From a virus (lineage: Duplodnaviria; Caudoviricetes): a stretch of 64,000 nt of DNA. The DNA is taken from positions 4,380 to 68,379 of IMG/VR virus record IMGVR_UViG_3300021431_000122; one strand, written 5' to 3'. The translations under genes and the position numbers were made by a program. A model generated the notes under the pieces. The model was not told the origin of the DNA. It saw only the letters and a list, made by a program, of their open reading frames with translations, and did not search any database. How positions within the stretch are numbered: the stretch's first letter is position 1; every line of letters starts with the position of its first letter. Below are positions 7,799 to 40,621 of the stretch, one piece after another.

Positions 7799-7875
7799 GG
7801 GCGCTTAGTTCACGTTCGGCAAAACTAATACGTACTAACTACGTATTGTCGGAGGTTCAAATCCTTCAGCGTCCG
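7799..7875 (+). tRNA. tRNA-like element 1 (aberrant anticodon arm, no CCA)
   Basis: Acceptor gggcgct/agcgtcc; T-arm ggagg-TTCAAAT-ccttc; anticodon arm is 8 bp (aatacgta/tacgtatt) with loop CTAAC; 3-nt variable region. Confidence 0.7.
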
Positions 7876-7903
7876 TTATCAAGGAATATAAGGAGATATT
7901 ATT

Positions 7904-9205
7904 GTGGCAGTACAAAAGAAAGGTATGAAGGTGACAAGCAAACGCACCACTACTTCTGCTCCTGTTACAGAGCGCAAGTCTGCCGCAGAAGTCAGACAAG
8001 AGAACGAAAAACTCTTAACAGAAAATCAACGATTAAAGAACGGTGCGTTTTGTTATATGTGCGGAAGGCACTTGGTGAAAGATCGGTTTTATGTTAGTAC
8101 CGATCCAAGAATACAAAGCGGTGTCTGTCCTATATGTAAAGATTGTGCTAGGAAAATTGCACACAGGATAGATGTCAATGGAGATGAACATGAACCTACG
8201 AAGGAATCTGTAATAGAAGCTTTGCGTTATCTGGACAAACCATTTATTGAGTCTGTGTGGAATGCAAGCATTCAAGAGTCTGCCAATCTTACGGCAGGTA
8301 AGACAAAGTCTACACCTTGGATGGCATATGCCAAAAACATTCAGATGGTGAATTATGTTGGTTTAACTTTTAAAGATTCGGACATGTTCAAAGTCCATAT
8401 CAAATATGACGATGAAAAGACCGAACAGGAATTAGTTGAAGAACACTCTGGTCAAGATACATATGATAGTTTTTTGAAAAACAAAGCTGACGTTATTCGG
8501 CTTCTTGATTATGATCCATTTGAGCGAGAACCAGTTAGTGATCAGCCGTTCTTATATTCTCAGCTTCTTGGAATGCTTGATGCTTCAGAAGATGCTAATG
8601 AGGATATGATGCGGGTCTCGTCTGCTATTCAGATTGTTCGTGGATTTCTTCAACTTCAGAAGATTGACGATGCTATTGCGAAGCTGATGGGTAACGTGAA
8701 TCAGTTGCAGGACAACTCTGCAACTATCAAGTCGTTGCAGGACAGTAAACAAAAGATTACAAGTATGATTACTAATCTTGCTGCTGAGAGTTGTCTGAGT
8801 TTGAAGAATAGTAAGAGTAAGACGAAGGGTGAAGATACTTGGACTGGTAGACTTCGTAAAATTAAAGATTTGAATTTGCGAGATTCAAGTTTAAATGGAT
8901 ATTCACTTGAAACCTGTAAAGGAATGCAACAAGTTGCGGATATTAGTATGCAAGCCATTATTAAAGGCTTGCGTCTGACCGAAGATGAGATGTCAGACAT
9001 TGTTGCAACGCAGCGTAAAAAAATTAAAGAAATGGATTTGCAAACAAAATCATACAAAGAAGCTGTTCGTATCTTATTAAGAGAAAATTTAGATCTTAGA
9101 GATACGTTAAGTAAATATAATATTGATAATGGCAATCTTGTCAATCTCGATGAAATTGTTAATACATATATTCTTCCGAGAAACGAGGTTGATTCAAATG
9201 GATAG
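7904..9205 (+). CDS. Zn-binding protein upstream of TerL (YonG-like; possible small terminase)
   Basis: CYMCG...CPICKDC; C-terminal coiled coil; overlaps the TerL start. Confidence 0.55.
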   Translation: MAVQKKGMKVTSKRTTTSAPVTERKSAAEVRQENEKLLTENQRLKNGAFCYMCGRHLVKDRFYVSTDPRIQSGVCPICKDCARKIAHRIDVNGDEHEPTKESVIEALRYLDKPFIESVWNASIQESANLTAGKTKSTPWMAYAKNIQMVNYVGLTFKDSDMFKVHIKYDDEKTEQELVEEHSGQDTYDSFLKNKADVIRLLDYDPFEREPVSDQPFLYSQLLGMLDASEDANEDMMRVSSAIQIVRGFLQLQKIDDAIAKLMGNVNQLQDNSATIKSLQDSKQKITSMITNLAAESCLSLKNSKSKTKGEDTWTGRLRKIKDLNLRDSSLNGYSLETCKGMQQVADISMQAIIKGLRLTEDEMSDIVATQRKKIKEMDLQTKSYKEAVRILLRENLDLRDTLSKYNIDNGNLVNLDEIVNTYILPRNEVDSNG

Positions 9206-11135
9206 TTATAAAGTTTGTTATGATAGTTATTTGGCTGATAAGTGTATTTATGGTAGTGATTTCGTAAGAGAAATTCTTGGAGTTGAAAATCAATATAATA
9301 ATATTTATGTTCCTCACAGAGATTATTCAATAAGCAACAAAAAGCTTGAAGGATTTATAAGATTAAATGAAGAGCGAGATTATTATCAGCAAAATCCAAT
9401 TAAATTTTTTGAAGATTTTTTCAGAATACAGTTACTAGATTCGCAGGCGTATCTTATGCAATCCGCATGGGTAACGAAAAATGTTGTCGTTTGCGCCTGT
9501 CGTGCGTGGGGAAAAACATTGTGGATATCATGGTTTGTTATGGGGAAACAAATGCTTTCAAGTGAACCATGGAATTGTTATATAGCTTCCGGTTCTAGTC
9601 AACAGTCGGCAACCACCTTTCGAAAACTTGAAGATGTTGCCAATGATAGAATATCAAGTTTAAGAGGATCGACGGGTAAGCTTTTTAAAAACGAGGTTGT
9701 GGTTAATGCAGCTGCGGGAGATGGATTTAGTCATAATCCATCTGGTTTTGAATATAAATTATATAATGATTCCTTTACAAAATCGTTGTCGTCGAACGTA
9801 GATCGCGGTAGAGGTGCTAGAAGCGACTGTGTTGTATACGATGAGTGTGGCTTTTTGAATAGTAATCTAATCGAGGTGTACAAGGCGTTTTGTGCCGTTG
9901 ACAATTCTTTTGCTACTGGATTTGATGAAAATGGCAATAGTATAGACATGGTTAGACTTTTGGCATCACCCCAAGCACCACCCAAACAATTGGTATATGT
10001 GTCTTCTGCTTCAAGCGTTGATACGGAATTTTATAAAATTTACAGAGATTATAGTAAACAAATGATTGCAGGTGATCCTGATTATTTTGTTGCAAATATT
10101 GATTGTGATCTTGCTATGCGTCCAACTATTCATAATGTTCCAACTGTATCAGCATTAACCAAAGATATGATTGAGGCTACAATGAGAACCAATCCGGTTA
10201 AAGGAAGACGAGAGTATTATTGTGAGTTTTCAGAAGATGCGGGGGCTGATGCAATCATTAAACGTGGGGTTATTACCAGAAACGAAGAGACTAGACTTCC
10301 GCTTTTATATAATGATACTGGTGATAAAAAATTTATTCTTGCATATGATCCCGCAAGAAGCATGGATAATTCTGTTATTGGTGTAATGGAGTTATATACA
10401 GTTAAATTAGTAGATGGATCAGAAGATCTTCGTGGTAGGATTGTTAATTGTGTAAATCTTATGGATGTTGGTAAAAAGCTTAAAACTCCTATGCAAACAC
10501 CAGATCAAGTTAATTATTTAAAACAGATGATACTTGATTATAACGCAGGTGCTGATGCTTATGGCAATATTAGTAGTGTGCTAATTGACGCAGGTGCCGG
10601 AGGAGGCGGTGTAGGCGTAGGAGATTACATAATGCAAGACTGGGAAACTTCGGATGGTATTATTCACAGAGGATTAATTGACAAGGAATATTCTTCGGAA
10701 TATGTTCCACGATTTCCAAATGCAGTTGACAAGATAAAATTATTGTCTCCCTCTTCATACAAGTCAATAATTTATGAATCGCTCATTGAGATGATGAATC
10801 AAGATAAGATTTCTTTTACTTCTACTTATGACAATAAAGGTTATTTGACTTTATTTGATATAGATGAAGAGGTTTTAGCAAAAGAAAAAGAAAGAATAAG
10901 TGAAAAATTAAGAAAACAAAAACTGAATCAAAAAGAATTTGACGAGAAATTGGCTGAGGAATTAGATAAAGTTCAATCTGTCAATACTAGGATTCAGAAA
11001 CTTTCATGGCAAGAAGAATTGGCTCTTGCGAATATCGATGCAATGAAAGAAGAAGTTGTGAATATCGTTCGTAAGAAGAGAGATTCTGGTCGTGACTCTT
11101 TTGATTTGACACCAGAAAAGGCACGAATTATGCAT
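9198..11135 (+). CDS. terL: Terminase large subunit, exon 1
   Basis: Walker A CRAWGKT, Walker B VVYDECG, nuclease LAYDPAR; ends at ...KARIMH. Confidence 0.92.
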
Positions 11136-12446
11136 AAACAATATTGTGCCTATGCGGCATAAATCATAATCCGCATAGAAAACCCGATCTGATTGACTTG
11201 GAAACCCAGAAGTGGGCAACAGGGCGCAAGTTTAAATACAGCGTGAACGACTGAGTGATTGGGATTCACTTATGTGAATATGCGACAGTCTGAACTCGTA
11301 ATATAACATAATGAAATACGAGAGATGTGGTCGAGTGTAAAGACACTCTTGGAAGAACCGCATTCGTTGATTTGTATATTCCAGATCTTGGAGGACAGGA
11401 ATATAACAGGAATATATATGATAAAAAATGTTGTGAATGGCAAGATGTACATAGGACAATCCAAAGATATAAAATTTAGATGGACGCATCATAAATGTGA
11501 TTTAAGATGTAATTGTCATTCTAATAAACACTTGCAAGGAGCATGGAATAAATATGGTGAAGACTCTTTTGAATTTTCTGTGATAGAAGAAACCGATCCA
11601 GATAATTTAAATAGCAGAGAAAGATATTGGATTACAAAATACAACTCTGTTAACAATGGTTATAATTTTGACTATGGTGGAGATGGTTGCTTTGGATATA
11701 AGCATTCAGAAAACGAAATTAATAAGATGAGGAGAATTCAATCACCAAATATCATATTACAATTTGATAAAGATTGCAAGTTTATCAAAGAATGGATTGG
11801 TGGTGCTTCCCATATTTATAAAGAACTTAAATACACAAAAGAATGTGTGCTTCTTCGATGCAACCATAAAATAAAAGAAATGTCTCTTTATAAAGATTCG
11901 TATTGGGTTTACAAGGAAGAGTATGAGCATCATGATTTTACATGGAATAAATACTTTGCAAATGAAAAAATTGTCGACATAAAAAAGAAGTCTAATAAAA
12001 CAGTGAAGCGTATTTGTCAATATACCAAAGACAGAGAATTGATAAAAATTTGGGACTCGTTGAAAGACATTAGAGAAGCGGGTTACAATACATCTCCAAT
12101 TTCTACGATTTTACATTTCAGCAGAGGGAAAAGAACGTCTCAGGGTTTTATTTGGACTTTTGAAGATTATGATTTTTCTGATGGGTATTTTGATGGTTTG
12201 ATTAAATATAAAAACAAAGCAAATGATAATCGAAAAATCAGAGTGATACAAGTCGACTGCAACACATTAGAACATGTTGCCGAATACGAATCAATAACTA
12301 AGGCTGCTGAAGCGCTAGGACATAATTGTTCTGGCGCTATTTCTATTGCAACAAAAAATCCATTTATTAAAACTTCGTGTGGTTTTTATTGGATTAAAGC
12401 TTCTTAATGGAATAATTTGAATATACAAATCAACGTAACAAAATTG
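11136..12446 (+). ncRNA. Group I intron in terL (1311 nt, carries a homing endonuclease)
   Basis: P1 exon gcat pairs with intron gtgc (U-G); P2 ctatgcgg/ccgcatag; P7 gactg (11249) / cagtc (11286); terminal G12446. Splicing restores IMH|DDRSY. Confidence 0.92.
11388..12407 (+). CDS. GIY-YIG homing endonuclease with three NUMOD1-like C-terminal repeats (start codon uncertain)
   Basis: TGIYMIKN..NGKMYIGQS..RW..H..LQ.AWNKYGE. Lies in a peripheral intron loop bounded by cgttgatttgtatat (11365) / atatacaaatcaacg (12421). Confidence 0.9.
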   Translation: MEDRNITGIYMIKNVVNGKMYIGQSKDIKFRWTHHKCDLRCNCHSNKHLQGAWNKYGEDSFEFSVIEETDPDNLNSRERYWITKYNSVNNGYNFDYGGDGCFGYKHSENEINKMRRIQSPNIILQFDKDCKFIKEWIGGASHIYKELKYTKECVLLRCNHKIKEMSLYKDSYWVYKEEYEHHDFTWNKYFANEKIVDIKKKSNKTVKRICQYTKDRELIKIWDSLKDIREAGYNTSPISTILHFSRGKRTSQGFIWTFEDYDFSDGYFDGLIKYKNKANDNRKIRVIQVDCNTLEHVAEYESITKAAEALGHNCSGAISIATKNPFIKTSCGFYWIKAS

Positions 12447-12593
12447 GATGATAGGTCTTATGTATTAGCGTTGTTAGCTTATGGTCTAGCACAAGAAAGG
12501 AAGAAGCTAATCTTAAAAAGGCCCAAAAATGCAGGATCTGTTTTAGATAAACTTGTGATTCGCCGTGGTTCATATAACGGCAAAACAATATAA
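12447..12593 (+). CDS. terL: Terminase large subunit, exon 2 (48 aa; spliced protein 694 aa)
   Basis: DDRSYVLALLAYG supplies the last catalytic acidic motif of the nuclease domain. Confidence 0.88.
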   Translation, partial: DDRSYVLALLAYGLAQERKKLILKRPKNAGSVLDKLVIRRGSYNGKTI

Positions 12594-12607
12594 AGGGAGG
12601 TGCGTAT

Positions 12608-18993: not shown

Positions 18994-19506
18994 ATGATAT
19001 CTTTTGATACATATGCTACCTATCTTCGTTCGGCGGGTAATAATCTTTCCGAGGTTAGAAAACGCCAGTCTGACGATGTTATGAATGCATCATTTACTGG
19101 GAATGTTGGTTACAAGAAAGTGTACATCCTTTCACCAGAGAATGGGTGGTGTTATGTTGATGCAAGATATTCTAAGCATGCAACAGAATCTATCCTCCGT
19201 GATGCTGTGGATTATTATCTCCAATTTAGACCAAAGGTTCATTTTCCTGTTGGCACTTATGTCTTCATACCAGACGATGTTAATGATTGTCTTGATATTA
19301 ATGAAGACTCGCCACTTGAGGGAGACGTTTCAAATCTTTGGATGATTGTTGGTCGTAATAATTCAAAGCAATTTGTTAGATATGAAGTTTTAAAGTGCAA
19401 CTGGAATTTCAAATGGGTTCACAAGTTATTTGGAAAAACAAGGGTGTTTAATTGTTGGGGTTGTGTAAGAAATGCGAATAGTTATACCTCCGGAGTGTGG
19501 AATGAT
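18994..19506 (+). CDS. Putative neck/head-closure protein, exon 1
   Basis: Ends SGVWND at a P1 U-G pair. Confidence 0.75.
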
Positions 19507-19848
19507 TAACTAAAGTTAGTCCGCTTTAATTCGAAAGATTAAAGTGCATCTCTCTGAATTGTCTGGAAAAACCTTAGAGCCTTATTACTACAACGTAATG
19601 ATGAAATAAGCATAGGCGTGATAGTTAAAAAAAACATAAGGATTGGTTAATCAGCAGCCGAGCCTCGAATAGAGGAAGGTTCATCGACTATTGGTTGAAA
19701 TACCATTAGGTACAAGCGTCCCGAAGTAGAGAGCATCTAAAACGCAATTGCGTCATGATGAATGATATAGTCAGTACTTCTGTGAAAACAGAAGAAAGTT
19801 GCTTTGCAACCTTTATGTATGTAGCGAATATATAAAGTAACATATTAG
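19507..19848 (+). ncRNA. Group I intron (342 nt, ORF-less) in the neck gene
   Basis: P1 gat|taact-aa-agtta-gtc; Q aatcagcag; P7 gacta (19686) / tagtc (19768); terminal G19848. Splice gives WND|YYTTALDNITSAWLP. Confidence 0.92.
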
Positions 19849-20517
19849 TATTACACCACAGCATTAGATAATATAACATCTGCATGGTTGCCAAACACAG
19901 CATATATATTTGGCAACAAACTCACTGAATACAATTTGGATGATATTCGTACAATTACCATTCAAACCAGAATGATGATTAGTTTAAATAATATCAATCC
20001 GAACTGTTACATGGTTTCCAAAATTCTTGATATGAATCCACAAGGAGTTCTCAAACTCACTTTGAAACAAGACGATTATAATAAACGCAGAGATGATCCT
20101 ACGCTTATGATCTGTGATTATTATGATGATTCCGGTGATATCACCGTTGATAAACCAGATGCGCAAGAGTCCACAGAAAAGACCAGTGTCATTTCTTATC
20201 TTGTTGTTGATTCTGATGGTAATATGGTGGATACGGAATTTGATGATGTTGTTACTATGCATACTGGTGTCACAGATTATTTCTCAGTTAAATTTTCTGA
20301 CGACAATATTGATGCTCAGTGGCGTGTTGAATTAGTAGGCGATGCTGAAAACAAGGCTGCCATTGAAAGGTTAATGGTTGTAAATCAAGTAACAGAATCA
20401 GTCATATCTATTAAGCCCGGAAAGGCAAACAAGGTGAAAGGTAAAACATTCACACTGTCTGTCTCTGACGCTAATGGCAACTACTATTCTTCTATTCGAT
20501 TGGAGGTGGTTGACTAA
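19849..20517 (+). CDS. Putative neck/head-closure protein, exon 2 (spliced protein 393 aa)
   Basis: In frame after splicing; C-terminal beta-rich domain. Confidence 0.75.
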   Translation, partial: YYTTALDNITSAWLPNTAYIFGNKLTEYNLDDIRTITIQTRMMISLNNINPNCYMVSKILDMNPQGVLKLTLKQDDYNKRRDDPTLMICDYYDDSGDITVDKPDAQESTEKTSVISYLVVDSDGNMVDTEFDDVVTMHTGVTDYFSVKFSDDNIDAQWRVELVGDAENKAAIERLMVVNQVTESVISIKPGKANKVKGKTFTLSVSDANGNYYSSIRLEVVD

Positions 20518-21143
20518 TGCGTGATCTTTCTAAGATAACCAGAGAATTAGACAATGTGAAGAATAATGATATTATTTATAAGAAAGCAAAAATCAAAGAG
20601 ATATTTCAAAATGATCCAGATTTGAAATATGTTCTTGGTCATATTGAATTGCTTCCTAATAAATATGAAAATGTCAGTGATGATGAGCTGACTGAAAAAC
20701 AGCTTGCTGAAAAAGAAGAAATACAAATTCATAATCAGAAAGCTGAGAAACATAACAAGGATCAGATTATTGATTTTCTTAAAGTTAATGAAATTCAGAC
20801 AGAGACTAAGAGTCTTATTATGTTTGATATCGAAGAAGAAATTGGTTATTACACTAAAAGCGAATTAATCAAAAATCAATATCTGACTGTTATGTGTTTT
20901 GTACATGAGGATGACATGGATACGGAATACGATGTAAAGCGCACCGATCTTTTATCATACATTGTAAAAGATCTTCTGTGTTGGAGCAATGAGACTGGAC
21001 TTCATATGAAGATGACGGAGGATAAACCTAGTATCACAGATACTAAGTACTACTGTCGTACATTGAAGTTTTTAATTAGAGCTACCAATACAAATAACTT
21101 TAGAACAGGAAATATGCAAAACAGCTATGCCCGGAGCTTTTAA
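20517..21143 (+). CDS. Putative tail completion/terminator protein
   Basis: Position before the tail tube gene; DVKRTDLLSYIVKDLL. Confidence 0.45.
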   Translation: MRDLSKITRELDNVKNNDIIYKKAKIKEIFQNDPDLKYVLGHIELLPNKYENVSDDELTEKQLAEKEEIQIHNQKAEKHNKDQIIDFLKVNEIQTETKSLIMFDIEEEIGYYTKSELIKNQYLTVMCFVHEDDMDTEYDVKRTDLLSYIVKDLLCWSNETGLHMKMTEDKPSITDTKYYCRTLKFLIRATNTNNFRTGNMQNSYARSF

Positions 21144-21963: not shown

Positions 21964-22003
21964 TTAAACATCGTTATATTATTTTAAAAAGGAGAAAACC
22001 AAT

Positions 22004-22189
22004 ATGTTTAAGCTCGGAGATCTGATCGTAGATCGTATAGTTGAAGGTGTGGCCGAGAACTCCGCAGGTGAGCTTCTGTACAGACTGACAAACCTTCAGG
22101 AGGCTACTATTGATATTACTGCTGATTCCACTGACGTTGTTGATGGAACTGGTGCTGTAATTAAGACATTCTATAGAGGAAAGACTGGT
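22004..22189 (+). CDS. Major tail (tube) protein, exon 1
   Basis: Strong RBS; ends FYRGKTG. Confidence 0.8.
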
Positions 22190-22512
22190 AGTTTGCTTAT
22201 ATGATATAAATGCATAATATAAGCATAAGCCGTCCATGATGAATCCACTATGTAAATCATGGATCATGAGCGATGAAAAAATCTGGAAAGTCCTTTGCAA
22301 GGATAATCAGAGCGGAAGTTATATAGTAATATATATAACACGCACAACGCATAGGAAGTGAAACTACATCTGAGATGTTGTAGAATATAATCTTCCCACG
22401 AGGCATCGCTATCGAGTGGAATAAACCGCAGAGGTTTATGATAAATAGATATGCTGGGCTGAATTGTAATGATTCAGAAGTGTGGATAAAAAGCCACACG
22501 ATAACAAATCCG
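22190..22512 (+). ncRNA. Group I intron (323 nt, ORF-less, variant P7) in the major tail protein gene
   Basis: Exon ggt pairs with intron gcc; inner stem tgcttatat/atataagca; aatctggaaagtcc..ggataatcagag; P7 gcata (22349) / tatgc (22450); terminal G22512. Splice gives KTG|TLTATN. Confidence 0.85.
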
Positions 22513-23112: not shown

Positions 23113-23129
23113 TCCGATTCTGATTTTCG

Positions 23130-23153: not shown

Positions 23154-23160
23154 ATAATTA

Positions 23161-28600: not shown

Positions 28601-31600
28601 ACCCAACATTGAAGACGATGCTGCTAAAATGAAAAGTAGCATTGAGACTATTGTTAAGGCTGTAATCGAATTACGTACTTCCGTTGGCGAGAACTTTGGA
28701 AGTATATTTTCTGGAGATCTTGGTTTTAAGGATGCGGTTACCGGAATTCAAGATGTGGGCAATGCTCTCTTCTCTCTTCTTGAAATAATTGAAAAGTTTA
28801 CTGGCATATCTTCTTCTGCTACGCTTGACAAGTTATTCTTTAATCTTGGTTTTGAAACCGAAACAATGGGTAATATAGATGCGAGAAGCAAGGCATTCAA
28901 GAATATAATAAAACAGTATGATGAATATGTAAAAGCTGGCGGAACAAAAAAAATATCGGATCTGACACCAGACGAAGCTGTTAAAAAGAAGCTAGATACT
29001 GGTTATTCCAACTATATTAAAAAGCAACAAAACGCCGAAAAGGCCAGTCGTGCTGCGGTGAAGGCCAGAGAATCTGTAATGAAGGCCGAGGAGGAAGAAA
29101 TAGCATCTTTTGGTGCTGTAGCTGTTCCGGTTGATGAGGTAGATGAAAAAAATGATAAATTGCAAAAATCGTTTGAAGAAGTTGTAAATGGCATTAAAGA
29201 TGTACAAACTTCTATTTCTACCTTAAAGGATTCTCTTAACTTCTCTGAAGGTGTAACTGGTATTAACACACTTGTTTCATCTATGGAGAATTTAATCGCA
29301 TTATTAGAAAAGATGTCTGGATTTAAATCTAAGGCAACTCTCGATAATATATTTTCAAATCTCAGTGAAACAACAAAAGCACAGAGCAATTTAAAAGCGA
29401 ATAGTAAAATATTTAAAGATATTCTCGGACAGTACGATGAATATTCACAACTTGGTGGAACTAAAGACATAACAGAATTAACTGACGATGTTAAATTACA
29501 AGAGAAGCTTCGTGCTAAATATGCAGAGTATGTGAAGGCTAGACAAGAAGCTGAAGCAGTATCTAAACAACAAGCTACCACCTCTCAAACTTCGGCTGAA
29601 TCTGCAACCAAAGAAGCTTCGGCTTTACAAGGCATCACTTCTGCTGCTACTGCTGCTGCTACCGCAAAGGAACTGTTTACAAAAGCTAATCAAGGCGTAA
29701 ATAATTCTGCAATTAAATCGGCTGATTCAGTAGATGCTGAAGGCAATGCAATGTCTAGTGTTGCTAAAATTGCGTCTCAAATGCATGAAGCTAATATTTT
29801 GATGGGGCAAAATGAGGACGCAGCAAATGCTAAAGAACGTGGATTCTTTTTTAACACTGCTACGAGTCATGTTGGAAATCCTTTCTTGGTTGGCAGTACA
29901 GGTTCTTTTCCTCAGCATAAGTTAGATAAGACTGGGATGAATGCATTTTTGCATACACATCCGGCAACAATTGGTTCTTTGTCGCTTATTGACAAACATG
30001 GTGATTCATATAGCGGTGATCTAGTTTCTTTTATTAGCCAACTTGAAAAGGGCATATATACACAGATTATATCCGGGTCTGAAGAAAGTCAAATAATAGA
30101 TTTTAAAGGATTTGCTGAAAAATATAGCGAAAATTTAGATCATTTAAAAAAAGATGCTCCAAATGCCAATAAAATTCTTAGGGAAATCTTTAGAGACGAG
30201 GCAAAATCTTTCAAGGATTCTTATATAAGGAGCAACATGTCAGATTTTGTGGCTTATTATATAGAACAGTTAAGGAAAGATGAAGCAATATCTAATGATG
30301 ACGTAGTAAAATTAATTGATTCATTAGAAAATGAGGCGTCCATTTTTAATAATGGTGATGTAACGAAATATTTATTAGATAAATTTGAAGCTGCCAGATC
30401 AAATCCTGATATTGATCAAGGAATTAATCACATATTTGATTATATATTTCGTCCTCAAAATGCAGATGTTGAATTAGAAAATATACTAGAAAAGATTCAG
30501 TATAGTGGTTATGATTCAATACAAACCACTTTTAACAAATTAATTGATGAAAGTGAACTTCGCAAACTTTATCGTGATGTAGTAACCCCTAAGTTCTTTG
30601 ATGCATTATTAGGTGAAGGTGCCGGTGAAGATTTCATGAAAAACTTCCAGCGTGTGGTCAAAACAGAAGATCTTGATGAAGCGTTGGGAATGAAAGGTGT
30701 TTCTGCACAGGCTAGCAATCTAGTAGAAACATACTCTCTCATTAAGGAGATATCGGCAATTCTTTCTGGCTTCGGAGATGGTGCCAAAGGGTTTGAAGCA
30801 CTAAATAAAATCGTCAACAATCTTGGCGGTAAAAATGGTGATGCCAAATTACAAGCCACCGTAGATGGATTACGTCAGATATTTGAAATTCTTAATACTC
30901 CGATGTCTGAGTCTAGTATGATGGAGGCCATTACTAAAATTGCTGACTCCGGAGAAAAACTTAAAGACCTTGCCACTGTTTTGAAGTCTACAAAAAAAGA
31001 TCTTGATAATGCAAGCAAGACGGTTGCAGGTGAAAATCAGCCTAATACATTTACCGAAGATGAATTTGAAAAGGAACGTAAAATACTTGAAGAGGGTCGT
31101 AAGTATTTAAGTAATTATGGTCAAGTGCTTGATGTAGTATTATCAAGAGGCAAAAACGGTATGACCAATCTTGTATCTAGAGTTATGGGTGAAGATCCAA
31201 ATACTCATGAAAAGAAGATACAAGAAGTAAAGCTTACTACTGCTGACGGTCGTTATTTTACAAGAGATTACATCAAACAGAATACTGCTGATCTTGCTAA
31301 ATATATGATGCAGATGCAACGTGCCAAAGAATTTGCCGAATCAAGGATGAAGTTTGGCACAGAAGAAGTTTTTCTTAAAGATGATACTGATGAAGAGACA
31401 TGGAATAAATTAATTAGTTATGCTTCGCAGTATGCCGAGCAGATAGGTAATATTCTAAAGATTACTAGACAAACAAGACAAAATGCCTCTGGTAACCTTC
31501 TTGAATCTTTTACATTTGTTGGTGACAAAGGTCATGTTACAATGGGGCAGGAATTTGATGAGGTTGCTAGTAGTCAAACCTACACTAATCCTCAGCAGAT

Positions 31601-32933
31601 TGCTTCTGCTTATGATAATTTAACAAGGTCTGTAAATGCGTATGTTAAAGCTAAAATGGAATCTTCACTTAAGAGTGGTGATTTCGGTGATACTGCTGCT
31701 ATAAATGAAATTGATACTCTTGTTAATAAACTGACGATAGATACACAAGAGGCAAATCAAAAACTTGGTAGCATGCAGAACATTGCACAAGAAGCTAAGG
31801 TGCGTTATGAAGATGCATTGTCCGGTGCTTATGATAATTATATAAATGATTATTTAAAAAAGGCACAGGGACAGGTAGATAGGGCAAATGCTACTCGTGC
31901 AAACCAACGCAATGGATATACAGAAGAATATCTTGAACAATTAAAGAAATATAAAGAAGTTTCTGATGAGTTAAAAACTTTACGTGAAAGTCATCAAGCC
32001 GGACAGTTATGGAATAATGATGAATTAGAAAAAACGGTTCAGCTTATTCAAACAATAGAACGAATACTTCCCGGTTTAAAAGATAATAATAATATACTTG
32101 CTAAAACAAGCGATATTGATAAAGAGCTTTCAAAACTCAACAAAGATTTAGCCGACAACTCTATTAGCGGTGAATTATTAAATAGATATATGACCTTGGT
32201 TAACTATCTTAATCAAGTGCGTACAGCCGGTGAAGGAGCCGCCGAAGGCTTATCTCAGATTAGTAAGATTGAGTTAGGAAAAGTGAAAGACGAAGTCCAA
32301 GATCTTCATAATCAAATGATCCAAACCGGTCAATATGGTAAGGGATTTTGGAAACAGTTTACTGGTGCTATTACATCTAGCAGTGCCAATTTCTTAGCAA
32401 CATATTTTAGTCTTCAAGATATCATTAGATATGCACAAGATATAACATCAACTGTAACAGCTATAGATAGTGCGCTTATCGAATTGCAGAAAGTTTCAGA
32501 TGCTTCCAACGAAAGAATTCAACAGAACTTTGAAAAGTCTGCTCAGACAGCACAAGATATGGGTGCAACTATAACAGATGTTATCAATTCCACTTCCGAT
32601 TGGGCTAGACAGGGTTATACGGTTGATGAATCTGAAGAACTTGCAAGAGTGACTCAGCTTTATCAGAATGTTGGTGATAATATATCACAGGAAGAAGCGA
32701 GTAAATCGCTTGTTTCCACCCTTCAAGGTTTCCAACTTGGAGCAGATCAAGCCGAATCTGTAATTGATAAATTCAATGAAGTTGCAAATAATTTTAGTAT
32801 TGATACATATGGAATAGGTCAAGCATTAGAGCGTTCTGCTGCATCTTTCTATGCAAGTGGAACCGATCTCTCAAAAGCAGTTGCACTTGTTACAACTGCC
32901 AATACCGTTCTCCAAAATCCAGAATCCGTAGGT
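25623..32933 (+). CDS. Tape measure protein, exon 1 (2437 aa)
   Basis: Long helical protein; TP901-like TMP core begins near 32460 and is cut at NPESVG. Confidence 0.88.
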
Positions 32934-33234
32934 ATATAATATGTGCCTACCCATATAGTAATATATGGATAATAAAAGTAGCTATATCGGTCAAATGCCA
33001 GAGATGGTTTAGACCGAGGTAAGATAATCAGAGATGTGTAAAAGCACATCTTTTTTTATTACCGTAGAGACTGTAATGGGTGTTATGGTAACATAACAAC
33101 CTTCGCTACTCTCCCACTATGTGGGATGAAGATCCAGTCCGAACTGCGACGATAATCCAATATGAAATCGCAGAGATGGCCAGAAACGACCATCCGCTAT
33201 CAGTTTATCTGATAGTCATAAAAGTAACAGAATG
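32934..33234 (+). ncRNA. Group I intron (301 nt, ORF-less) in the TMP gene
   Basis: P1 exon gtaggt pairs with gcctac; P2 ccatata/tatatgg; P7 gactg (33069) / cagtc (33135); terminal G33234. Splice gives PESVG|TTFKTLSARLRG. Confidence 0.92.
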
Positions 33235-36200
33235 ACAACATTCAAAACTCTTTCTGCTCGTCTTCGTGGTTCTACTACAGAATTAAAAGAACTTGATGAA
33301 GAAACAGATGAGTATACAGAGACAACATCAAAGCTTAGAGATCTTGTTGAAGGTCTTACTGGCTTTGATATTATGGAGGATGAGAACAACTTCAAGGATA
33401 TCTATGAGATCCTTGTTGGAATTGGTAAGGAATGGGATAATTTAACAGATATTGAGCAAGCATCTCTTTCAGAAGCGTTAGCTGGAAAGAGAATGTCAAA
33501 CGCATTATTTGCTATTCTTAATAATATTGATACTCTTGAGGAAGCTTATAAAACAGCAGAGGAATCTGCTGGATCTGCTCGCAGAGAAGAAGAACACTAT
33601 GAAGAATCGGTTCAGTATAGAATTGATCAGACAAAGGCAAGTCTTCAGGAATTGTCTTATGATTTCTTAAGTTCAGATTTTCTCAAAGGATTAATTGAAG
33701 GTGCCAATATTTTTCTTCAAAAGCTTGATGAGATTGTTGAAAAGGTTGGTACGTTAGGTTCTTTAATTGCTGCGTTTACTGCAAAAGACTTTTTCATGGG
33801 TGCAGCAGGTGGAAACAGTATTTTCGCAGAAATCTTTAAAACCGCAGTTGGACCAAATGGCGATACTGGCACAATGATTGGAAACATCAAAAAACTAATA
33901 AGCGGAAAAGAAAATAAAGATGTTTCCAATGCAGCAAAAGCCGCAGGTAATGTCGCAGGAGAAGCACTTTCTCAGGGTGTTGCTGATGGCGTAAAGGATG
34001 GCGCAGCAGAAAAAGTCACGGAAGATGTTGTTAAGTCCGTGGCCGAAGGCGCCACTGATGCGGTTACTGAAAATGTAGCCGAATCTGGTGTTAAAAATGT
34101 TGTAGAAGCAGTAACAAAGACTGCATCGGAAGTTGCAGACGATGTTGCCGATGGTGCAGAAGACATTCTTGCTAAAGCTGTTGTCAATGAGTCCACGGAA
34201 GCAACAATGTCTAAAATGGCAAAACCACTTGCCGAAGGTGTTATTGATACTCTTGAAACCACTTTTGACGATGGTGATGCGGGAATTATTTTAGCCAACT
34301 CTTTAATTAATACAGAATCCATTTCGGAAGTTGCGGACGATGTTGCCGAAGTAGCCGAAAAGACATATGCCACCTATGCCGATAAATTAGCAGACATCGC
34401 AAAAGATGGGCCGATATTTAAGGATGCCGAACGAACATTAGCTAAAGGAGCTGCCGAAGCCGGTGAAGTTGCGGGTGAAGCAATGGCTGGAGGTATGGCA
34501 TCTGGGGCGTCTTCTGCCGCAGGCGGACTTGGATCAAAACTTGTTGCCGCTCTTGGTGGGCCAGTTGGAGCCGCTATAGCGGGTGTGGCAACCGCAGCTT
34601 TAGTAGGTTTAGCAATTGCAGGAGCTGTAAAACGTGCAAGAGAAGAAGCCGTAGAAGAAGCAACTCAAGAGGCTATGGATCTTGCGGGTCGTCAGAGCGA
34701 CATGGACAACACTATTGCTCGTGTCGAAGAACTTCGTAACAAATTAAAAGATTCAAATATCACAGAGCAAGAAGCATACAACACAAAGATTGAATTACTT
34801 TCAATTCAAGAACAACTTTCCGATTCTTATGGAACTCTTTCAGGGCAGATAGATCTTGTTAATGGTTCACTTAAGGAACAAATTGGCTTAATGCAACAAG
34901 CATCGGTATATGATGCAAATAAATTTTTAAACGAGAATGATAAAGCCATAAAAATTGCGACAAAGGAAATGACGAAAGAGCTAAACGATTCCTTGTCGCA
35001 AGAAATATCCATGTATGATCCCGCATTTGACAAGGTCAAAGAGATTGTAGATAAGTATAATTCGTTTAAATTAACATCTACTCAAGACGGTCTTTACCGT
35101 TTAGATATTACTGGAAATGTTCAAGAGGTTAATAGTCAGATAGTTAACTTTATGGCAGATCTTCGTGAATTAAGAGATGAATCTGGCAGTTATGTCGTTG
35201 ATATGTTATATGATAATCTTGACGGATATAATAATCATTATCAAGATGTCATAGATAAGAATCAGGAACTTTATAAAAAAGGTCTTGAAAATTCGTTATT
35301 AGTTAACGGGTTTGATGATTCTGGTAATCTCAAAGAAGATTCTGGCCTGAAGTATCTTAATGACCTTACTGCTGCCGCTGATACATTGAACGATTCTATC
35401 ATTGGTGTTAATGATATATCAGTTGATGAAGCTCTTACCGGATATAAGAATGCGTGGATTGCGGCCCAAGGTTTCTTGAAAGATTCTCCGCAATACTCTG
35501 TCTTATTTGATGAGGTTGCCGAATCTGCAAATACATCAAATGTTTCGCTTGCGAAATTCAAAGAAAATGTTAACGATTCCGATTCAAGACTTGGCAAATT
35601 TGCAAAAGATGTTAAGGATTCAAAACTGTCTGAATCAGATATCTTTGATATTTTGTATGGTAAAACTACAAATGTAGGTTCTGGATCTGACGCTATTCTT
35701 GCTCTTGCAAAAAGCTTTGGAATTCTTAAAGGGGATGTTGCTCCTACTGAGGCACAGATTACTTCTTTTGTTGATGTATTAAAAGATCTTGGTGTGATTG
35801 CTTCTGATGTTGCAGAAGATGGTACGATTGATTTAAGTGGTTTCTTCAAAGAAGCCTCCAATGCTGTTGCTCAAGTCGACAAGATGAATGCCGCTCTTGT
35901 CAGTGGATTGCAGAGCGGAGGCATGTCAATTAGCTATGAAGTTGGAGAAAATGGCGAAGAGTCTTGGACTGGCACTATAGAAGATGTCAGAAAAGCATTT
36001 GGCGAACTTGAATCGTTTAACATAAACGGTTTATTAAAGCGCACATCTAATGGTGTTAAGGTTAATCAGAAAGCATGGCGTAAACTTCGTCAAGAACAGG
36101 AGAATTTACAGAAGAAGAAGTTTCTTGAGAAACAAGCCGATTTAACAGCTCAACTTACCGATTTGCAAACGCAGTTGATTGCGGCTCAAGCCAAAGGTGA

Positions 36201-39200
36201 AGATACAGGAAATCTACAAAAAAGAATTAGCGACCTTCAAGAAAACATAGACAATGTCAACTTTCTTGCAGCTGCTTATGACGGTGCAACATCAGCGTAC
36301 CAGAAATGGTTAGATGTACAGGCAGGACCTAAAGAGGGAGATATCTACGACAATATACGTGACAATGCGCTTACTCGTGGTGATGAACTTCTTAAGAATG
36401 GAATGGTTGGCGATGAATTTAGATCGATTGCGCAGATGTTCAGTTCAGAAGATCTTTCAACTGCACCACTTGAGCAAGTAATTGAAGCGTATCAAGCTAT
36501 TGATAAGATTGTTCCGGGTACTACTAAAAAAGTTCGTGATTTCTTCACAGAAGATATGCAGGGCGCATTCGCCTTTTCTGATGCATTAGTTGAACTTGGA
36601 TATGCGACTGGCAGTTCCACAGAAGGTTATGAATTCGGTTTATTTACTACCGAAGAAATTGCTAAGTCTCTTGGAGTTAGTCAAGATATTGTAGATGCAA
36701 TCTTTGACAAGATGCGTTTGTTTGGTGCTGACGTTACTCTTCTATCTGATGATGAAGTCGAAAAATTAAAAACAGCAGGTAAAAACGTAGACGAGCTTCA
36801 AGATAAATTAGAGAATCTTAACAAAGAGCAAAAAGTAACTAAAGATAGTTCTGAATTAGATATCTCTGTAGCAACCAACTTTAATCTTGATGAATTAAAT
36901 ACCGTCGATGAATTACAAGGTAAAATTGACGAACTAAATACTCTTCGTGCAAATCCTAATATTTCTGATGAGAGCGCAAAAATTCTTGACAGCATTCTTG
37001 CTGAAGTAATTAAAAAGCTTGACATAATTAATGGTACAGATGCAAATCCTGACGTTATTACAATTGACGATGTTATTCAAGCGCAAGAACAGTTGGATAC
37101 TCTTAAAAAGCGTCTTGCACAGATTAAAGAATATAACGACACTCATATAAACGTACAGGTTAACGCAGAAGAAGATCAAACAGTTCAAGATATTGCAGAA
37201 TACCTTGCGGGACTTGACGAGGGTCTTCAACTTGATTTAGGTATTAATCCTGAAAATGTTGGCAATGCAGAAGCTATTATTGAGCAGTTGTTAAGTGGTG
37301 ATTTAAAAATCGAGGATGTCACCGGTGTCAAAGAAGGAGTTGAAAAAGAACTCAAAGCTGCTGATACTTCTGTTGATGTAGAAGCACATGTTAATACCGA
37401 TGGTATGAATGATCCTAATACGCTCATTCAAGAAAAGTTTGCAACAAAAGGTATAACTACAACAAATACTGTTAATACCAAAACTACCGGACAAGAAGGT
37501 GTTGATTCTCTTTCTGATTCTATAAACAATGTTAATGATAAAAAGGTAAATGTTGAAGCTAAGGTCAAAGGCACTGGGACTGTCATTGCTCTTGACAGGT
37601 CGATTGACGATCTTACAGGGAAAAAAGTAGAGGTCACGGCAGAGGTTCATGGAACTGGAACCGTAATGGCTCTGGCTAGTGCTATCAATGATTTAAGAGA
37701 TAAAGACATTACTGTAACCACACATCATAGAAATGATGTTAATGGAACTGCCAACAGAAGCACTCAAGCTAACGGTACTGCTCATGTAGGAGGCACAACT
37801 TATGCTCATGGTAAATGGGGCGCACCTCGTACTGAGACTGCTCTTGTTAATGAGCTTGGCCCAGAGATAATTGTTCGTGATGGCAGATGGTTTACAGCCA
37901 ATGATGGTCAGCCCGGATTTACAGGAATAAAGAAGGGTGACATTATCTTTAATCATAAGCAGTCTGAAGAACTTCTCAAGAATGGTTATGTCACAAAGGG
38001 CTATGCTCACATGGCATTTGCTGAAGGAACTGCATATGCTAATGTGGGAAGTTGGGGAGCTTATTTTACTCAACAGCAATATAACAAGCAAGGTATTAAT
38101 ACTGCAAGTACGGTTCAAGCATCTGCTGTTAATGCGGCTAATGCTGTAAAGGATGCGGCGAAGAAGGTTAAGGATGATGTTGATAAAACCGTTGACTGGA
38201 TTGAAATTCTTCTTGACAGAATCGACCGCAGAATTCAGACTCTTGCAGATGCGGCTGATGATACTTGGAGAACATTCTCATCTCGTAGAAATAATTTGTA
38301 TAAAGAGATAGATGCTGTAAGACAACAAGAAGTCTATGCACAGCAAGGAGCCGAGCGTTATAAGAAACAGGCTAATAAGGTCGGTCTTCCTGCCAACTTG
38401 AGAAAGCTTGTTCAGCAAGGTAAAATTGACATCTCCTCTGTTAAAACCGAAGACCTCAAAAAGAAAGTAGAAGAATATCAAGGTTGGTGGGATAAATATC
38501 TTGATTGTCTCGCTCTTGTAAAAGAGTCTCAATATACTCAGAACGAATTATTCAATCAAAATTATGACATGGTGAAGACTGAATACGAAGGTCTTCTTGG
38601 TAGTATTGAGCATTCGATTACTACTCTTCAGAATTTCATAGACATTGCCGAAGAAGACGGTCATTTCAGTAGTTCGAAATACTATACTGAAATGATTAAG
38701 TATGAGAAGAAAAATATTTCCACTCTTAAAAAGGAAAAGAAACAACTTACTACTGCTCTTAATGATGCGTTGGCTAATGGTCTTAAGGTTGGCAGTGAAG
38801 AATGGGTCAACATGACCAACGGCATCAAGGAATGCGATGAAGCAATTCAAGAGTCAACTAAGAACATCATCTCCTACAACAATGCTATTCGAGATCTTAA
38901 GTGGGAGCGTTGGGATTTCCTGATTGACCGCATCGAGGATGTTAATACAGAACTTAAATTCCTGTATGACCTTATTGATGAAGACAAGATGTTTGACGAC
39001 AAGGGTCTTGTCACAATTGCGGGCATGAACGGATTATCTCTTCTTGCGGAGCAGATGGATGTCTATATGAAAGAGTCTCAGAAGTATGCCTCAATGATAA
39101 AGACAACTGAGGAAGATCTTGCAAAAGACCCATATGATACTGACCTTATCGAGAAGCTTTCGGAACTTCGCAAGGCTCAACAGGATTCTATCATATCTGC

Positions 39201-40548
39201 TAATGACCAGAAGAAAGCAATTAGAGATCTTGTCAAGAACGGCTACGACAAGATGTCTGAATCTCTTAGGAAAATTATTGATGATTATACTGAACTCCTT
39301 GACAGCAACAAGGATATGTATGATTATCAGCAGAACGTCATTGATCAGCAAAAGGAAATCTCCAGACTTCAGCGACAGGTTCAAGCGTGGGGTGGAGACA
39401 ATTCTGAAGAGGGTGCGGCACGGAGGCAGCAGACATCCGCAGAACTTGCCGATGCTCAGAAGAAACTGGCTGAAACTATGGAGGATCGTAGAATTTCCGA
39501 AACAAAAGAAATGCTCAATGACCTTTATGATAATTATACTGAGATTCTCAACAACAGGCTTGATGACATCGAGGCAACAGTTGAACAAGTTGTTGATGCT
39601 GTTAATACCGTTGCGGCAGGAACAAATGCAATTGCTGATGCAAATGTCAGCATTTTGGATTTGAGTGGTTTAGTCGCCGAGGCTAAGAATGAACTGCTTG
39701 GTAGCAATGATAATATCATTTTGAAAACCATTAAGGATTCTGCGGAATATGTCGGATACAACATAACTTCAGAAACTCAAAAGGCTCTTGGTGATAATAC
39801 TGCAATTAAAGACGGTGTTCGTGAAATTGTATCCGCATTCCAGATGGGTGACTTTACAGTTAAAGATGCAGCTGTTATTAAATCGCTTAATGATATTTCC
39901 GATTTCATTTTCAAAGAGATGGTTCCCGCTCTCAATGCGATTGCAGAGGCCGAGATAAAAACTACCACAACCACAACCACAACTACTACTACGAAAAAGA
40001 AAAAGAAAACACCAACAACACCAAAGAAGAAAACATCTTCGAAAGTTGTTATAAAAACAAGCATTGGCAGTACAGCACCCAAAGGAAAAACTCAGAGTAT
40101 TATAACTAGCACCAAACAAAATGTGGAGGCAATTTTCAAATACGCTCGTGGTGGCAAGAATCTTAAAGAACAGCTTGCTTGGCTTGACGAGTATGGCAGG
40201 AACGAGACCATTATTCGCAAGTCTGACGGTGCAGTTCTTACACGCCTTAACCTTGGTGATTCTGTGCTGAAGAAAATGGCAAGTGATAATCTGTGGAATA
40301 TGGCAAACGATCCTACACAATTTATCAAGGACAACATGCCGAGCAACACGAAGGTATCCAACATTGGCGGTGGAACACAGAACAATTCGTTTGACATCAG
40401 CATCAATGTGCCGAATGTCACGAACTATCGTGAGTTCATGTCCGCTATGCAAAAGGATAAACAGTTTGAGAGACTTATTCAAGAAATGACTCTTGGTCAG
40501 ATGAATGGAAATAATTCTCTCAGAAAACACTCTATTAACATACGGTGA
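33235..40548 (+). CDS. Tape measure protein, exon 2 (2437 aa; spliced protein 4874 aa)
   Basis: Continuation of the TMP core; coiled coils; ALVNELGPEII and YARGG...E motifs typical of TMP C-termini. Confidence 0.88.
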   Translation, partial: TTFKTLSARLRGSTTELKELDEETDEYTETTSKLRDLVEGLTGFDIMEDENNFKDIYEILVGIGKEWDNLTDIEQASLSEALAGKRMSNALFAILNNIDTLEEAYKTAEESAGSARREEEHYEESVQYRIDQTKASLQELSYDFLSSDFLKGLIEGANIFLQKLDEIVEKVGTLGSLIAAFTAKDFFMGAAGGNSIFAEIFKTAVGPNGDTGTMIGNIKKLISGKENKDVSNAAKAAGNVAGEALSQGVADGVKDGAAEKVTEDVVKSVAEGATDAVTENVAESGVKNVVEAVTKTASEVADDVADGAEDILAKAVVNESTEATMSKMAKPLAEGVIDTLETTFDDGDAGIILANSLINTESISEVADDVAEVAEKTYATYADKLADIAKDGPIFKDAERTLAKGAAEAGEVAGEAMAGGMASGASSAAGGLGSKLVAALGGPVGAAIAGVATAALVGLAIAGAVKRAREEAVEEATQEAMDLAGRQSDMDNTIARVEELRNKLKDSNITEQEAYNTKIELLSIQEQLSDSYGTLSGQIDLVNGSLKEQIGLMQQASVYDANKFLNENDKAIKIATKEMTKELNDSLSQEISMYDPAFDKVKEIVDKYNSFKLTSTQDGLYRLDITGNVQEVNSQIVNFMADLRELRDESGSYVVDMLYDNLDGYNNHYQDVIDKNQELYKKGLENSLLVNGFDDSGNLKEDSGLKYLNDLTAAADTLNDSIIGVNDISVDEALTGYKNAWIAAQGFLKDSPQYSVLFDEVAESANTSNVSLAKFKENVNDSDSRLGKFAKDVKDSKLSESDIFDILYGKTTNVGSGSDAILALAKSFGILKGDVAPTEAQITSFVDVLKDLGVIASDVAEDGTIDLSGFFKEASNAVAQVDKMNAALVSGLQSGGMSISYEVGENGEESWTGTIEDVRKAFGELESFNINGLLKRTSNGVKVNQKAWRKLRQEQENLQKKKFLEKQADLTAQLTDLQTQLIAAQAKGEDTGNLQKRISDLQENIDNVNFLAAAYDGATSAYQKWLDVQAGPKEGDIYDNIRDNALTRGDELLKNGMVGDEFRSIAQMFSSEDLSTAPLEQVIEAYQAIDKIVPGTTKKVRDFFTEDMQGAFAFSDALVELGYATGSSTEGYEFGLFTTEEIAKSLGVSQDIVDAIFDKMRLFGADVTLLSDDEVEKLKTAGKNVDELQDKLENLNKEQKVTKDSSELDISVATNFNLDELNTVDELQGKIDELNTLRANPNISDESAKILDSILAEVIKKLDIINGTDANPDVITIDDVIQAQEQLDTLKKRLAQIKEYNDTHINVQVNAEEDQTVQDIAEYLAGLDEGLQLDLGINPENVGNAEAIIEQLLSGDLKIEDVTGVKEGVEKELKAADTSVDVEAHVNTDGMNDPNTLIQEKFATKGITTTNTVNTKTTGQEGVDSLSDSINNVNDKKVNVEAKVKGTGTVIALDRSIDDLTGKKVEVTAEVHGTGTVMALASAINDLRDKDITVTTHHRNDVNGTANRSTQANGTAHVGGTTYAHGKWGAPRTETALVNELGPEIIVRDGRWFTANDGQPGFTGIKKGDIIFNHKQSEELLKNGYVTKGYAHMAFAEGTAYANVGSWGAYFTQQQYNKQGINTASTVQASAVNAANAVKDAAKKVKDDVDKTVDWIEILLDRIDRRIQTLADAADDTWRTFSSRRNNLYKEIDAVRQQEVYAQQGAERYKKQANKVGLPANLRKLVQQGKIDISSVKTEDLKKKVEEYQGWWDKYLDCLALVKESQYTQNELFNQNYDMVKTEYEGLLGSIEHSITTLQNFIDIAEEDGHFSSSKYYTEMIKYEKKNISTLKKEKKQLTTALNDALANGLKVGSEEWVNMTNGIKECDEAIQESTKNIISYNNAIRDLKWERWDFLIDRIEDVNTELKFLYDLIDEDKMFDDKGLVTIAGMNGLSLLAEQMDVYMKESQKYASMIKTTEEDLAKDPYDTDLIEKLSELRKAQQDSIISANDQKKAIRDLVKNGYDKMSESLRKIIDDYTELLDSNKDMYDYQQNVIDQQKEISRLQRQVQAWGGDNSEEGAARRQQTSAELADAQKKLAETMEDRRISETKEMLNDLYDNYTEILNNRLDDIEATVEQVVDAVNTVAAGTNAIADANVSILDLSGLVAEAKNELLGSNDNIILKTIKDSAEYVGYNITSETQKALGDNTAIKDGVREIVSAFQMGDFTVKDAAVIKSLNDISDFIFKEMVPALNAIAEAEIKTTTTTTTTTTTKKKKKTPTTPKKKTSSKVVIKTSIGSTAPKGKTQSIITSTKQNVEAIFKYARGGKNLKEQLAWLDEYGRNETIIRKSDGAVLTRLNLGDSVLKKMASDNLWNMANDPTQFIKDNMPSNTKVSNIGGGTQNNSFDISINVPNVTNYREFMSAMQKDKQFERLIQEMTLGQMNGNNSLRKHSINIR

Positions 40549-40555
40549 GTATGGT

Positions 40556-40621
40556 GCGGCACTCGGTAGGTTAGTGGACTCATACATCCACTAATTGGAG
40601 GTTCAACTCCTCCGTGCCGTA
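40556..40621 (+). tRNA. tRNA-like element 2 (D-armless, Met-like CAT loop)
   Basis: Acceptor gcggcac/gtgccgt; T-arm ggagg-TTCAACT-cctcc; 8-10 bp stem ttagtgga/tccactaa with loop CTCATACA; only 6-8 nt replace the D arm. Confidence 0.7.

Follow-up and report, generated by a model that had tools for sequence, protein, structure and literature searches.

Three RNA elements that resemble transfer RNAs (tRNAs) are encoded in a 64,000-nucleotide stretch of DNA (hereafter, the window) from an uncultured rumen phage. Judging from their sequences, these elements are real, derived from tRNA genes, and non-decoding. They lie in three gaps of the late gene block, which we call sites 1, 2, and 3 after the element each one holds (Table 1). 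The best reading of the folds is that they may still be excised by the host enzymes that trim tRNA ends, RNase P and RNase Z. We hold this reading tentatively and rate it somewhat below an even bet; co-transcription, cleavage, and a benefit to the phage are what we infer under it. An earlier note on the same DNA had described intact acceptor and T arms combined with aberrant anticodon or D regions, and this description proved right in all essentials, with the corrections given below.

With default settings, ARAGORN reported one gene in the window, at 40550–40622, as tRNA-??? with the four-base anticodon 'cata' in an 8-nt loop. When run with the -ps90 option, which lowers its thresholds to 90%, on both strands of the 64 kb, it returned exactly three matches (7799–7875, 23161–23234, and 40550–40622), all on the plus strand. 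At 80% of the thresholds, 29 matches were obtained, which we take to be mostly noise. Searches with the Rfam tRNA model RF00005 gave 29.3 bits for element 1 (7799–7875) and 30.1 bits for element 3 (40556–40621), both barely above the gathering cut-off of 29 bits. Element 2 was not reported by this model at E ≤ 10, even when the search was restricted to 4.3 kb (19400–23700). Ordinary tRNAs of related phages score 46–73 bits with the same model.

The background of the -ps90 search amounted to 0.65 matches per window in block-shuffled windows and six matches in 1.1 Mb of reversed decoys, or approximately 0.35–0.65 per 64 kb overall. Five matches were found in 457 kb of the structural modules of relatives, and the two on the gene strand both fall within coding sequence. 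Three matches, taken by count only, are mildly unusual. Each of them, however, is on the coding strand and in a non-coding gap. As such gaps, by our own estimate from the map of open reading frames (ORFs), cover a few percent of the window, the three matches are not chance. Furthermore, when the window was scanned with a custom pattern that required a 7-bp acceptor stem around a G+C-containing T arm, only elements 1 and 3 were found. An origin by chance, as tRNA-resembling folds within structured intergenic DNA, would accord with the -ps90 background rate and with the blindness of Rfam to element 2. We give this explanation next to no credence, as two elements exceed the Rfam tRNA cut-off and the Leu-type 5′ half of element 2 is like that of the group's tRNA-Leu; for elements 1 and 3, chance is already very unlikely. 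No YrlA, transfer-messenger RNA (tmRNA), or other catalogued tRNA mimic was matched by Rfam over the window at E ≤ 10, a 21.8-bit tRNA-Sec echo of element 3 being the sole match of this type, and ARAGORN found no tmRNA in the window. When the three elements were compared by blastn with the fetched loci and the window, no homologues were detected, and their mutual similarity was limited to the T-loop.

All three elements keep the acceptor/T part of a tRNA. Acceptor stems are paired at 7/7, 6/7, and 7/7 positions in elements 1, 2, and 3, respectively, T stems are fully paired in all of them, and a U directly follows each discriminator. As the earlier note had stated, none encodes CCA. Elements 1 and 3 have the canonical 7-bp acceptor stem and 5-bp T stem with a 7-nt UUCRANY loop, from which element 2 departs. 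In element 1, the acceptor stem consists of G1–C72, G2–C71, G3–U70, and four more pairs, the D arm has 3 bp with GG in its loop, and the T arm is canonical (GGAGG UUCAAAU CCUUC). All elbow nucleotides are kept (U8, A14, G18, G19, A21, G53, U54, U55, C56, A58, and C61). Its anticodon arm measures 21 nt, not 17, with a 7–8 bp stem, the loop ACUAACU, C33, and C37, so that the canonical combination of a 5-bp stem, a 7-nt loop, U33, and purine 37 is absent. ARAGORN -ps90 labels it 'Leu(taa)', and its folding z-score is -4.1.

Element 2 has a 6-bp acceptor stem with a U1–U72 mismatch and a D arm of the Leu type (3-bp stem, GG in the loop). A 6-bp stem with an 8-nt 'anticodon' loop, UCUGUUGU, follows, and then a long extra hairpin; the T stem has 6 bp. 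Its minimum-energy fold is the five-helix cloverleaf (z = -2.9). ARAGORN -ps90 reads 23161–23234 as 'Asn(gtt)'. In pairwise comparison with 108 tRNAs of relatives, its best match was tRNA-Leu(UAA), to which the 5′ half is closely similar; a clear lead was obtained for this element only, and the isotypes of elements 1 and 3 are ambiguous. In element 3, a 6-nt linker takes the place of the D arm and is followed by a 10-bp hairpin, whose loop of 8 nt reads CUCAUACA, and by a perfect T arm (GGAGG UUCAACU CCUCC). Its acceptor stem can be extended to 9 bp from 40554, and its minimum-energy fold is identical to the drawn structure (z = -5.5).

The surroundings of the elements are also alike. Sites 1 and 2 show the same order: a stop codon, a strong hairpin, 4–7 nt, the tRNA-like fold, 10–20 nt, and a strong ribosome-binding site (RBS). 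The RBS begins 10–20 nt after each of the three elements and is followed by a start codon 22–34 nt downstream of the element (7904, 23282, and 40656), in agreement with the earlier note. The U-less hairpins that it had placed 5–7 nt upstream of two elements end 4 nt before element 1 and 7 nt before element 2. No promoter-like site was listed within ~100 nt upstream of the elements, and no U-tract terminator lies between the upstream gene and the element at any of the three sites. Because promoters are missing and the upstream hairpins are U-less, read-through of the late block and co-transcription of the elements are plausible.

Recognition by bacterial RNase P and RNase Z depends mainly on the stack of acceptor stem and T arm together with the elbow, and minihelices are known substrates. 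We propose that three gaps of the late block acquired or retained tRNA genes in this phage's lineage, and that these genes lost decoding there. What they would have retained are the parts read by the host enzymes: the stacked acceptor and T arms in all three, and a consensus T-loop in elements 1 and 3. In a late transcript running through the sites, RNase P would cleave at the 5′ boundary of every element and RNase Z at its 3′ boundary; such cutting is expected because of the acceptor/T stack, the missing CCA, and the U after the discriminator. In Bacillus subtilis, RNase Z cleaves CCA-less precursors 3′ of the discriminator, and those with a long 5′ leader are processed by RNase P beforehand (PMC1874595). 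Excision would leave the upstream message ending 4–7 nt past a protective hairpin at sites 1 and 2, and the downstream message beginning 10–20 nt before a strong RBS. Work on phage SP82 and B. subtilis reportedly indicates that a strong RBS near the 5′ end stabilises a message in Bacillota. In a bolder form of this proposal, the phage lineage would have turned spare tRNA genes into dedicated RNase P/RNase Z cutting signals that decouple the stability and dosage of neighbouring late messages; we regard this form as unlikely.

To compare site 1 among relatives, we used the 142 homologues of gene 7904–9205 in IMG/VR, which come mostly from phages of 90–210 kb and, judging by sample numbers, from gut and rumen. 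In these relatives, site 1 is a tRNA island: ARAGORN identified 179 ordinary tRNAs in 80 loci, nearly all on the gene strand. After deduplication, a normal same-strand tRNA ended within 400 nt before the gene, commonly at 70–90 nt, in 30 of 58 loci. As relatives carry tRNA arrays at this site, element 1 is best read as a probable remainder of the group's tRNA island. A relative's tRNA-island region also contains a skipping-rope RNA (RF02924, 67 bits; L061:593-671).

A subgroup of relatives (L006–L008, and also L009) has at site 1 a 43-nt minihelix consisting of acceptor stem and T arm only (L006:2947-2989). It sits between a terminator-like hairpin and the RBS of the 7904–9205 homologue; among its variants, the linker differs, and one G–U pair of the T stem is changed to A–U. 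The minihelix is unrelated to element 1 and is an independent second case at this site, which counts in favour of selection on shape; a scan for it in 396 control windows gave no match.

Several comparisons weigh against a processing role. The closest relatives at site 1 (L002–L004, 67–72% protein identity) have no gap, hairpin, or element there. At site 2, four relatives with flanking genes of 50–82% identity (L082–L084 and L095) have a hairpin only and no tRNA-like fold, in the order stop codon, hairpin of unrelated sequence, and RBS of the Cys-rich gene. Site 3 in three relatives likewise has a hairpin only, with no tRNA-like fold; here the tape-measure stop codon is followed by the hairpin, an RBS, the small gene, and the DUF6558 tail gene. 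In the structural modules of ten relatives (~45 kb each, 457 kb in total), -ps90 and the custom scan revealed no intergenic tRNA-like element, and the only tRNAs of these relatives were arrays immediately before the structural module. Exact-pattern searches (T arm plus acceptor stem) of IMG/VR found no homologue of element 1 or 3, and a search of GTDB genomes with the element 3 pattern found neither a homologue nor an ancestral tRNA. Two features of the folds themselves point the same way: the T-loop of element 2, UGCAGAU, is off consensus at positions 55 and 58, and ViennaRNA favours a rod-like fold for element 1, whose cloverleaf lies 3–4.5 kcal/mol above the minimum and whose T stem is present in ~7% of the ensemble. 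Moreover, placement at module junctions carries little weight, since the late block offers few non-coding gaps in which the elements could lie: approximately nine measure at least 45 nt, and four of these resemble intervening sequences. Finally, the pattern of an intact acceptor/T part with a broken anticodon is partly ascertainment, because tRNA finders and readers see only those remnants that keep acceptor and T arms.

The rate of change at site 2 was assessed with a close relative, the contig AUXO014077155.1 (L093), one of three (L093–L095) recovered by a metagenome scan. It is 98.9% identical to the window over 22052–24728 and keeps element 2. The 31 differences comprise 19 at third codon positions (~2.6% of ~735), four at first and none at second positions, three within element 2 (3/99, 3.0%), four that form an inversion of the hairpin loop, and one at gap position 22228. 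Element 2 thus appears to change at about the near-neutral rate of third codon positions, which also counts against a processing role. All three changes in it spare the fold, two falling in a hairpin loop and one converting G–U to A–U; by our rough estimate, this outcome has a chance probability of ~0.15 and decides nothing. The inverted loop at 23140–23143 reads ATTA in the window versus TAAT in the contig, a switch expected from hairpin/cruciform inversion. From window position 24728 onward, inside gene 24635–25129, the contig (L093:2678-4045) diverges abruptly, which marks a mosaic boundary before the tape-measure gene.

Because relatives have the hairpin without the fold at sites 2 and 3, the junction hairpins appear common to the group, and the tRNA-like folds appear to be lineage-specific additions in this phage. 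The earlier note had raised the possibility of a tRNA-punctuation system, or else of decoys. The anatomy on which these ideas were built stands, as the elements are tRNA-derived, non-decoding, and of a build that RNase P and RNase Z recognise; a conserved, coordinated system is not supported, as relatives carry normal tRNAs or nothing at site 1 and only a hairpin at sites 2 and 3, which is largely the outcome that the note had named as refuting.

The main alternative is that the elements are decaying tRNA genes with no kept role and that RNase P or RNase Z, if either cuts there, does so incidentally. With rapid turnover of tRNA genes in the group, three recent arrivals or leftovers would look alike through detection bias. 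We consider decay a real possibility, though one that we would not expect to hold. It would explain the tRNA island at site 1, with a normal tRNA near the gene in more than half of the distinct relatives, and the gap between the 29–30 bits of the elements and the scores of the relatives' tRNAs. It would also explain the absence of the elements from relatives at sites 2 and 3, the near-neutral rate of element 2 together with its degraded T-loop and first acceptor pair, and the cloverleaf of element 1 not being its stable fold. Less expected under decay is that, in elements 1 and 3, the decoding parts have each undergone several changes while no stem pair is broken, and that element 1 has kept every elbow nucleotide. 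Nor did any relative carry, at site 2 or 3, a working tRNA that could have been the starting point of decay, and the changes in element 2 all spare the fold. The first three of these points, together with the minihelix of L006–L008, speak for selection on shape, as expected of excised processing signals, for which the comparative support is weak.

A further set of abnormal tRNA genes was found in the closest long relative, G001 (IMGVR_UViG_3300021426_000071, 129 kb). Its 12-gene tRNA array, on the minus strand at C1:104-792 and 127571-128741 (L085 and L086), contains only about five normal genes. Among the abnormal ones are a 58-nt gene (43.9 bits) and a 61-nt gene (38 bits) that lack an anticodon arm, a gene whose loop has 6 nt, a minihelix of acceptor stem and T arm 41 nt long, and a 91-nt oddity; a pattern search for homologues of the 58-nt gene returned only itself. 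Since this array is mostly abnormal, non-decoding tRNA look-alikes seem to be common in this phage group. The several damaged-looking genes can be counted in favour of decay; equally, as more than half of the array consists of non-decoding look-alikes, phage RNAs that are tRNA-shaped and do not decode may form a broader class that has yet to be described.

An INPHARED search with 6 kb around site 1 gave two marginal matches only. IMG/VR searches at site 3 with the DUF6558 protein and the C-terminus of the tape-measure protein as queries gave no close relatives, and more distant ones were reached by a genome search. Target-site duplications or insertion scars could not be defined, as the intergenic DNA around the elements has diverged too far from that of relatives. 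The single GTDB match to the element 3 pattern was rejected as chance, as it lies within Bryobacterales sequence and is not a tRNA.

The altered loops raise the question of whether the elements act as decoys or sponges for host tRNA-targeting nucleases or tRNA-binding factors, or resist such nucleases through their loop changes. According to three reports (PMC10264068, PMC11464382, PMC11555353), phage tRNAs counter tRNA-cleaving defences, partly by anticodon-loop changes. CAU, GUU, and UAA triplets are still visible in the loops of the elements, and the G001 array has tRNA-like genes without an anticodon arm. We nevertheless judge this explanation improbable. In the known cases, decoding is restored by functional tRNAs, whereas these elements cannot decode; a bait for anticodon nucleases would be expected to have a native-looking loop, whereas the loops are the most altered part here. 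Single copies in late messages would make a poor sponge if one were needed early, and no gene for a tRNA-repair, tRNA-processing, or other tRNA-related enzyme was found among the window genes screened.

Alternatively, the elements could be odd tRNAs that still work, either as four-base decoders causing +1 frameshifting (elements 2 and 3, with 8-nt loops) or as an alanine-charged tRNA (element 1). The four-base anticodon called by ARAGORN in element 3 suggests the former. The latter is suggested by the G1–C72, G2–C71, and G3–U70 pairs of element 1, G3–U70 being the main mark recognised by alanyl-tRNA synthetase. Even so, the absence of a D arm in element 3, an anticodon arm 2–3 bp too long in element 1, the off-consensus T-loop of element 2, and the failure to find a gene needing a frameshift make this explanation very improbable. 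The sole +1 overlap, at 9123–9205, was considered as a target for a frameshift suppressor and rejected: it reflects start–stop coupling (ATG at 9198) and contains no in-frame TATG or AACA.

The closest counterparts of the proposed excised signals are the t-elements of plant mitochondria, which have a non-canonical cloverleaf and the conserved T-arm motif GGTTCRANYCC, mark mapped mRNA ends, and direct RNase P and RNase Z to cut there (Forner et al., 2007, PMC1920247). The T arms of element 1 (GGTTCAAATCC) and element 3 (GGTTCAACTCC) match this motif, and that of element 2 (GGTGCAGATCC) has two mismatches. In both cases, a tRNA-like but non-canonical fold with this motif adjoins mRNA ends or coding regions within longer co-directional units. 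In contrast, t-elements are organellar and their RNA ends have been mapped, whereas the phage elements are known from sequence and are not conserved in related phages. By analogy, it is plausible that the elements are a phage version of t-elements. As in the tRNA punctuation of animal mitochondria, excision would separate the messages of a polycistronic transcript; the mitochondrial tRNAs, however, are working ones and act genome-wide, whereas the phage elements are three in number, do not decode, and belong to one lineage.

Phage tRNA islands and pseudogenes near ROOL or GOLLD RNAs (PMC5737381; bioRxiv 10.1101/2024.12.08.627333) recall site 1, which is near a ROOL RNA and holds arrays in relatives, whereas elements 2 and 3 stand alone in the tail-gene block, where no examined relative has a tRNA. 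The nuclease-escaping tRNAs described by van den Berg et al. (2023, PMC10264068) are likewise phage-encoded, with changes concentrated in the anticodon loop; they have 7-nt loops and decode, unlike the 8-nt loops, the over-long stem, and the missing D arm found here.

RNase P is also known to act on RNAs other than tRNAs, such as intercistronic sites of operon mRNAs and the C4 RNA of phages P1 and P7. These substrates share with our elements an acceptor/T mimic for cutting a longer RNA; they have no sequence relation to the elements, whose cleavage is predicted. If the elements are excised, phages would use the tRNA-trimming enzymes of the host to divide long messages and set protein ratios, a device known from organelles and of which we found no phage description in the literature. 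Many 'pseudo-tRNAs' discarded by annotation pipelines would then have a purpose. If they only decay, they would illustrate the fast gain and erosion of tRNA genes in large phages of gut and rumen, and would serve as a warning that the combination of an intact top half with a broken anticodon arises in part from how such genes are detected.

Table 1. Coordinates of the three tRNA-like elements and of the features around them in the window.
Feature	Position	Strand	Description
ROOL RNA (Rfam RF03087)	5932–6527		291.8 bits, complete; 1.3 kb upstream of element 1
Exonuclease-like gene	6489–7751	+	
Hairpin, site 1	7752–7794	+	19 bp, no U tract, RNAfold -25.8 kcal/mol; directly 3′ of the stop codon of 6489–7751
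Element 1	7799–7875	+	77-nt tRNA-like RNA; 4 nt after the hairpin; no CCA
RBS AAGGAG	7890–7895	+	
433-aa gene	7904–9205, GTG start	+	PHROG 3314, function unknown
Terminase large subunit	ORF 9123–11162, likely start ATG 9198	+	Followed by a GIY-YIG homing endonuclease gene, then portal and head genes
'Virion structural protein' gene	22438–23112		PHROG 2729; tape-measure gene, then tail genes, further downstream
Hairpin, site 2	23130–23153	+	10 bp, G+C-rich, no U tract, 4-nt loop; ends 7 nt before element 2
Element 2	23161–23259	+	99-nt class-II (tRNA-Leu-type) tRNA-like RNA; discriminator A, no CCA
RBS GAGGAG and 105-aa Cys-rich gene	23270–23599, ATG 23282	+	Gene conserved in relatives
Intrinsic terminator	23605–23638	+	Strongest of the late region; 15-bp stem and T run; directly 3′ of the Cys-rich gene
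Element 3	40556–40621	+	66-nt tRNA-like RNA; 8 nt after the tape-measure stop codon; no CCA
RBS AAGGAG and 49-aa gene	40642–40805, ATG 40656	+	
Tail gene	40825–41634	+	Pfam DUF6558, phage tail protein domains

The window corresponds to bases 4380–68379 of a 68,379-bp IMG/VR record, for which a CheckV completeness of 40% indicates a genome of ~170 kb. Its G+C content is 38.7%, and nearly all genes are on the plus strand. The AUXO prefix of the closely related contig is one that we take to denote a sheep-rumen metagenome. No ROOL RNA was found within 3 kb upstream of the 7904–9205 homologue in the 20 loci of relatives searched. The earlier note had placed element 1 just before a terminase pair; of that pair, the large subunit is indeed present, and gene 7904–9205, which falls in PHROG 3314, is at most a putative terminase subunit. 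Similarly, the gene that it called the major tail gene is positioned before element 2 as described, and it can be identified only as a 'virion structural protein'.

The Cys-rich gene after element 2 has homologues at 96%, 73%, and 60% identity, and the terminator that follows it is placed in the middle of the tail-gene block. In relatives, a small gene precedes the DUF6558 gene as it does downstream of element 3, in one case with coiled-coil-like sequence.

Probable intervening sequences were also observed in late genes. The two 2438-aa ORFs in 25623–40548 are not paralogues and represent consecutive parts of one tape-measure protein: the C-terminus of the first corresponds to positions 493–770 of PHROG 4211, and the second, from residue 4, to positions 774–2538. 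The joined protein would have ~4,870 aa. The 292-nt insert between them (32940–33231) is highly structured (-89 kcal/mol) and intron-like; the Rfam group I model matched neither this insert nor the 19400–23700 region. The virion structural gene is also split, into 22004–22204 (66 aa) and 22438–23112. Its parts are contiguous in a single frame in L083 and L084, whereas in the window, L082, and L095, ~236 nt and a change of frame lie between them. On this comparison, the split at 22004–23112 appears to be a second intervening sequence in a late gene, and the gaps at 19510–19887 and 11163–12607, the latter with the GIY-YIG endonuclease gene, may likewise be intervening sequences.

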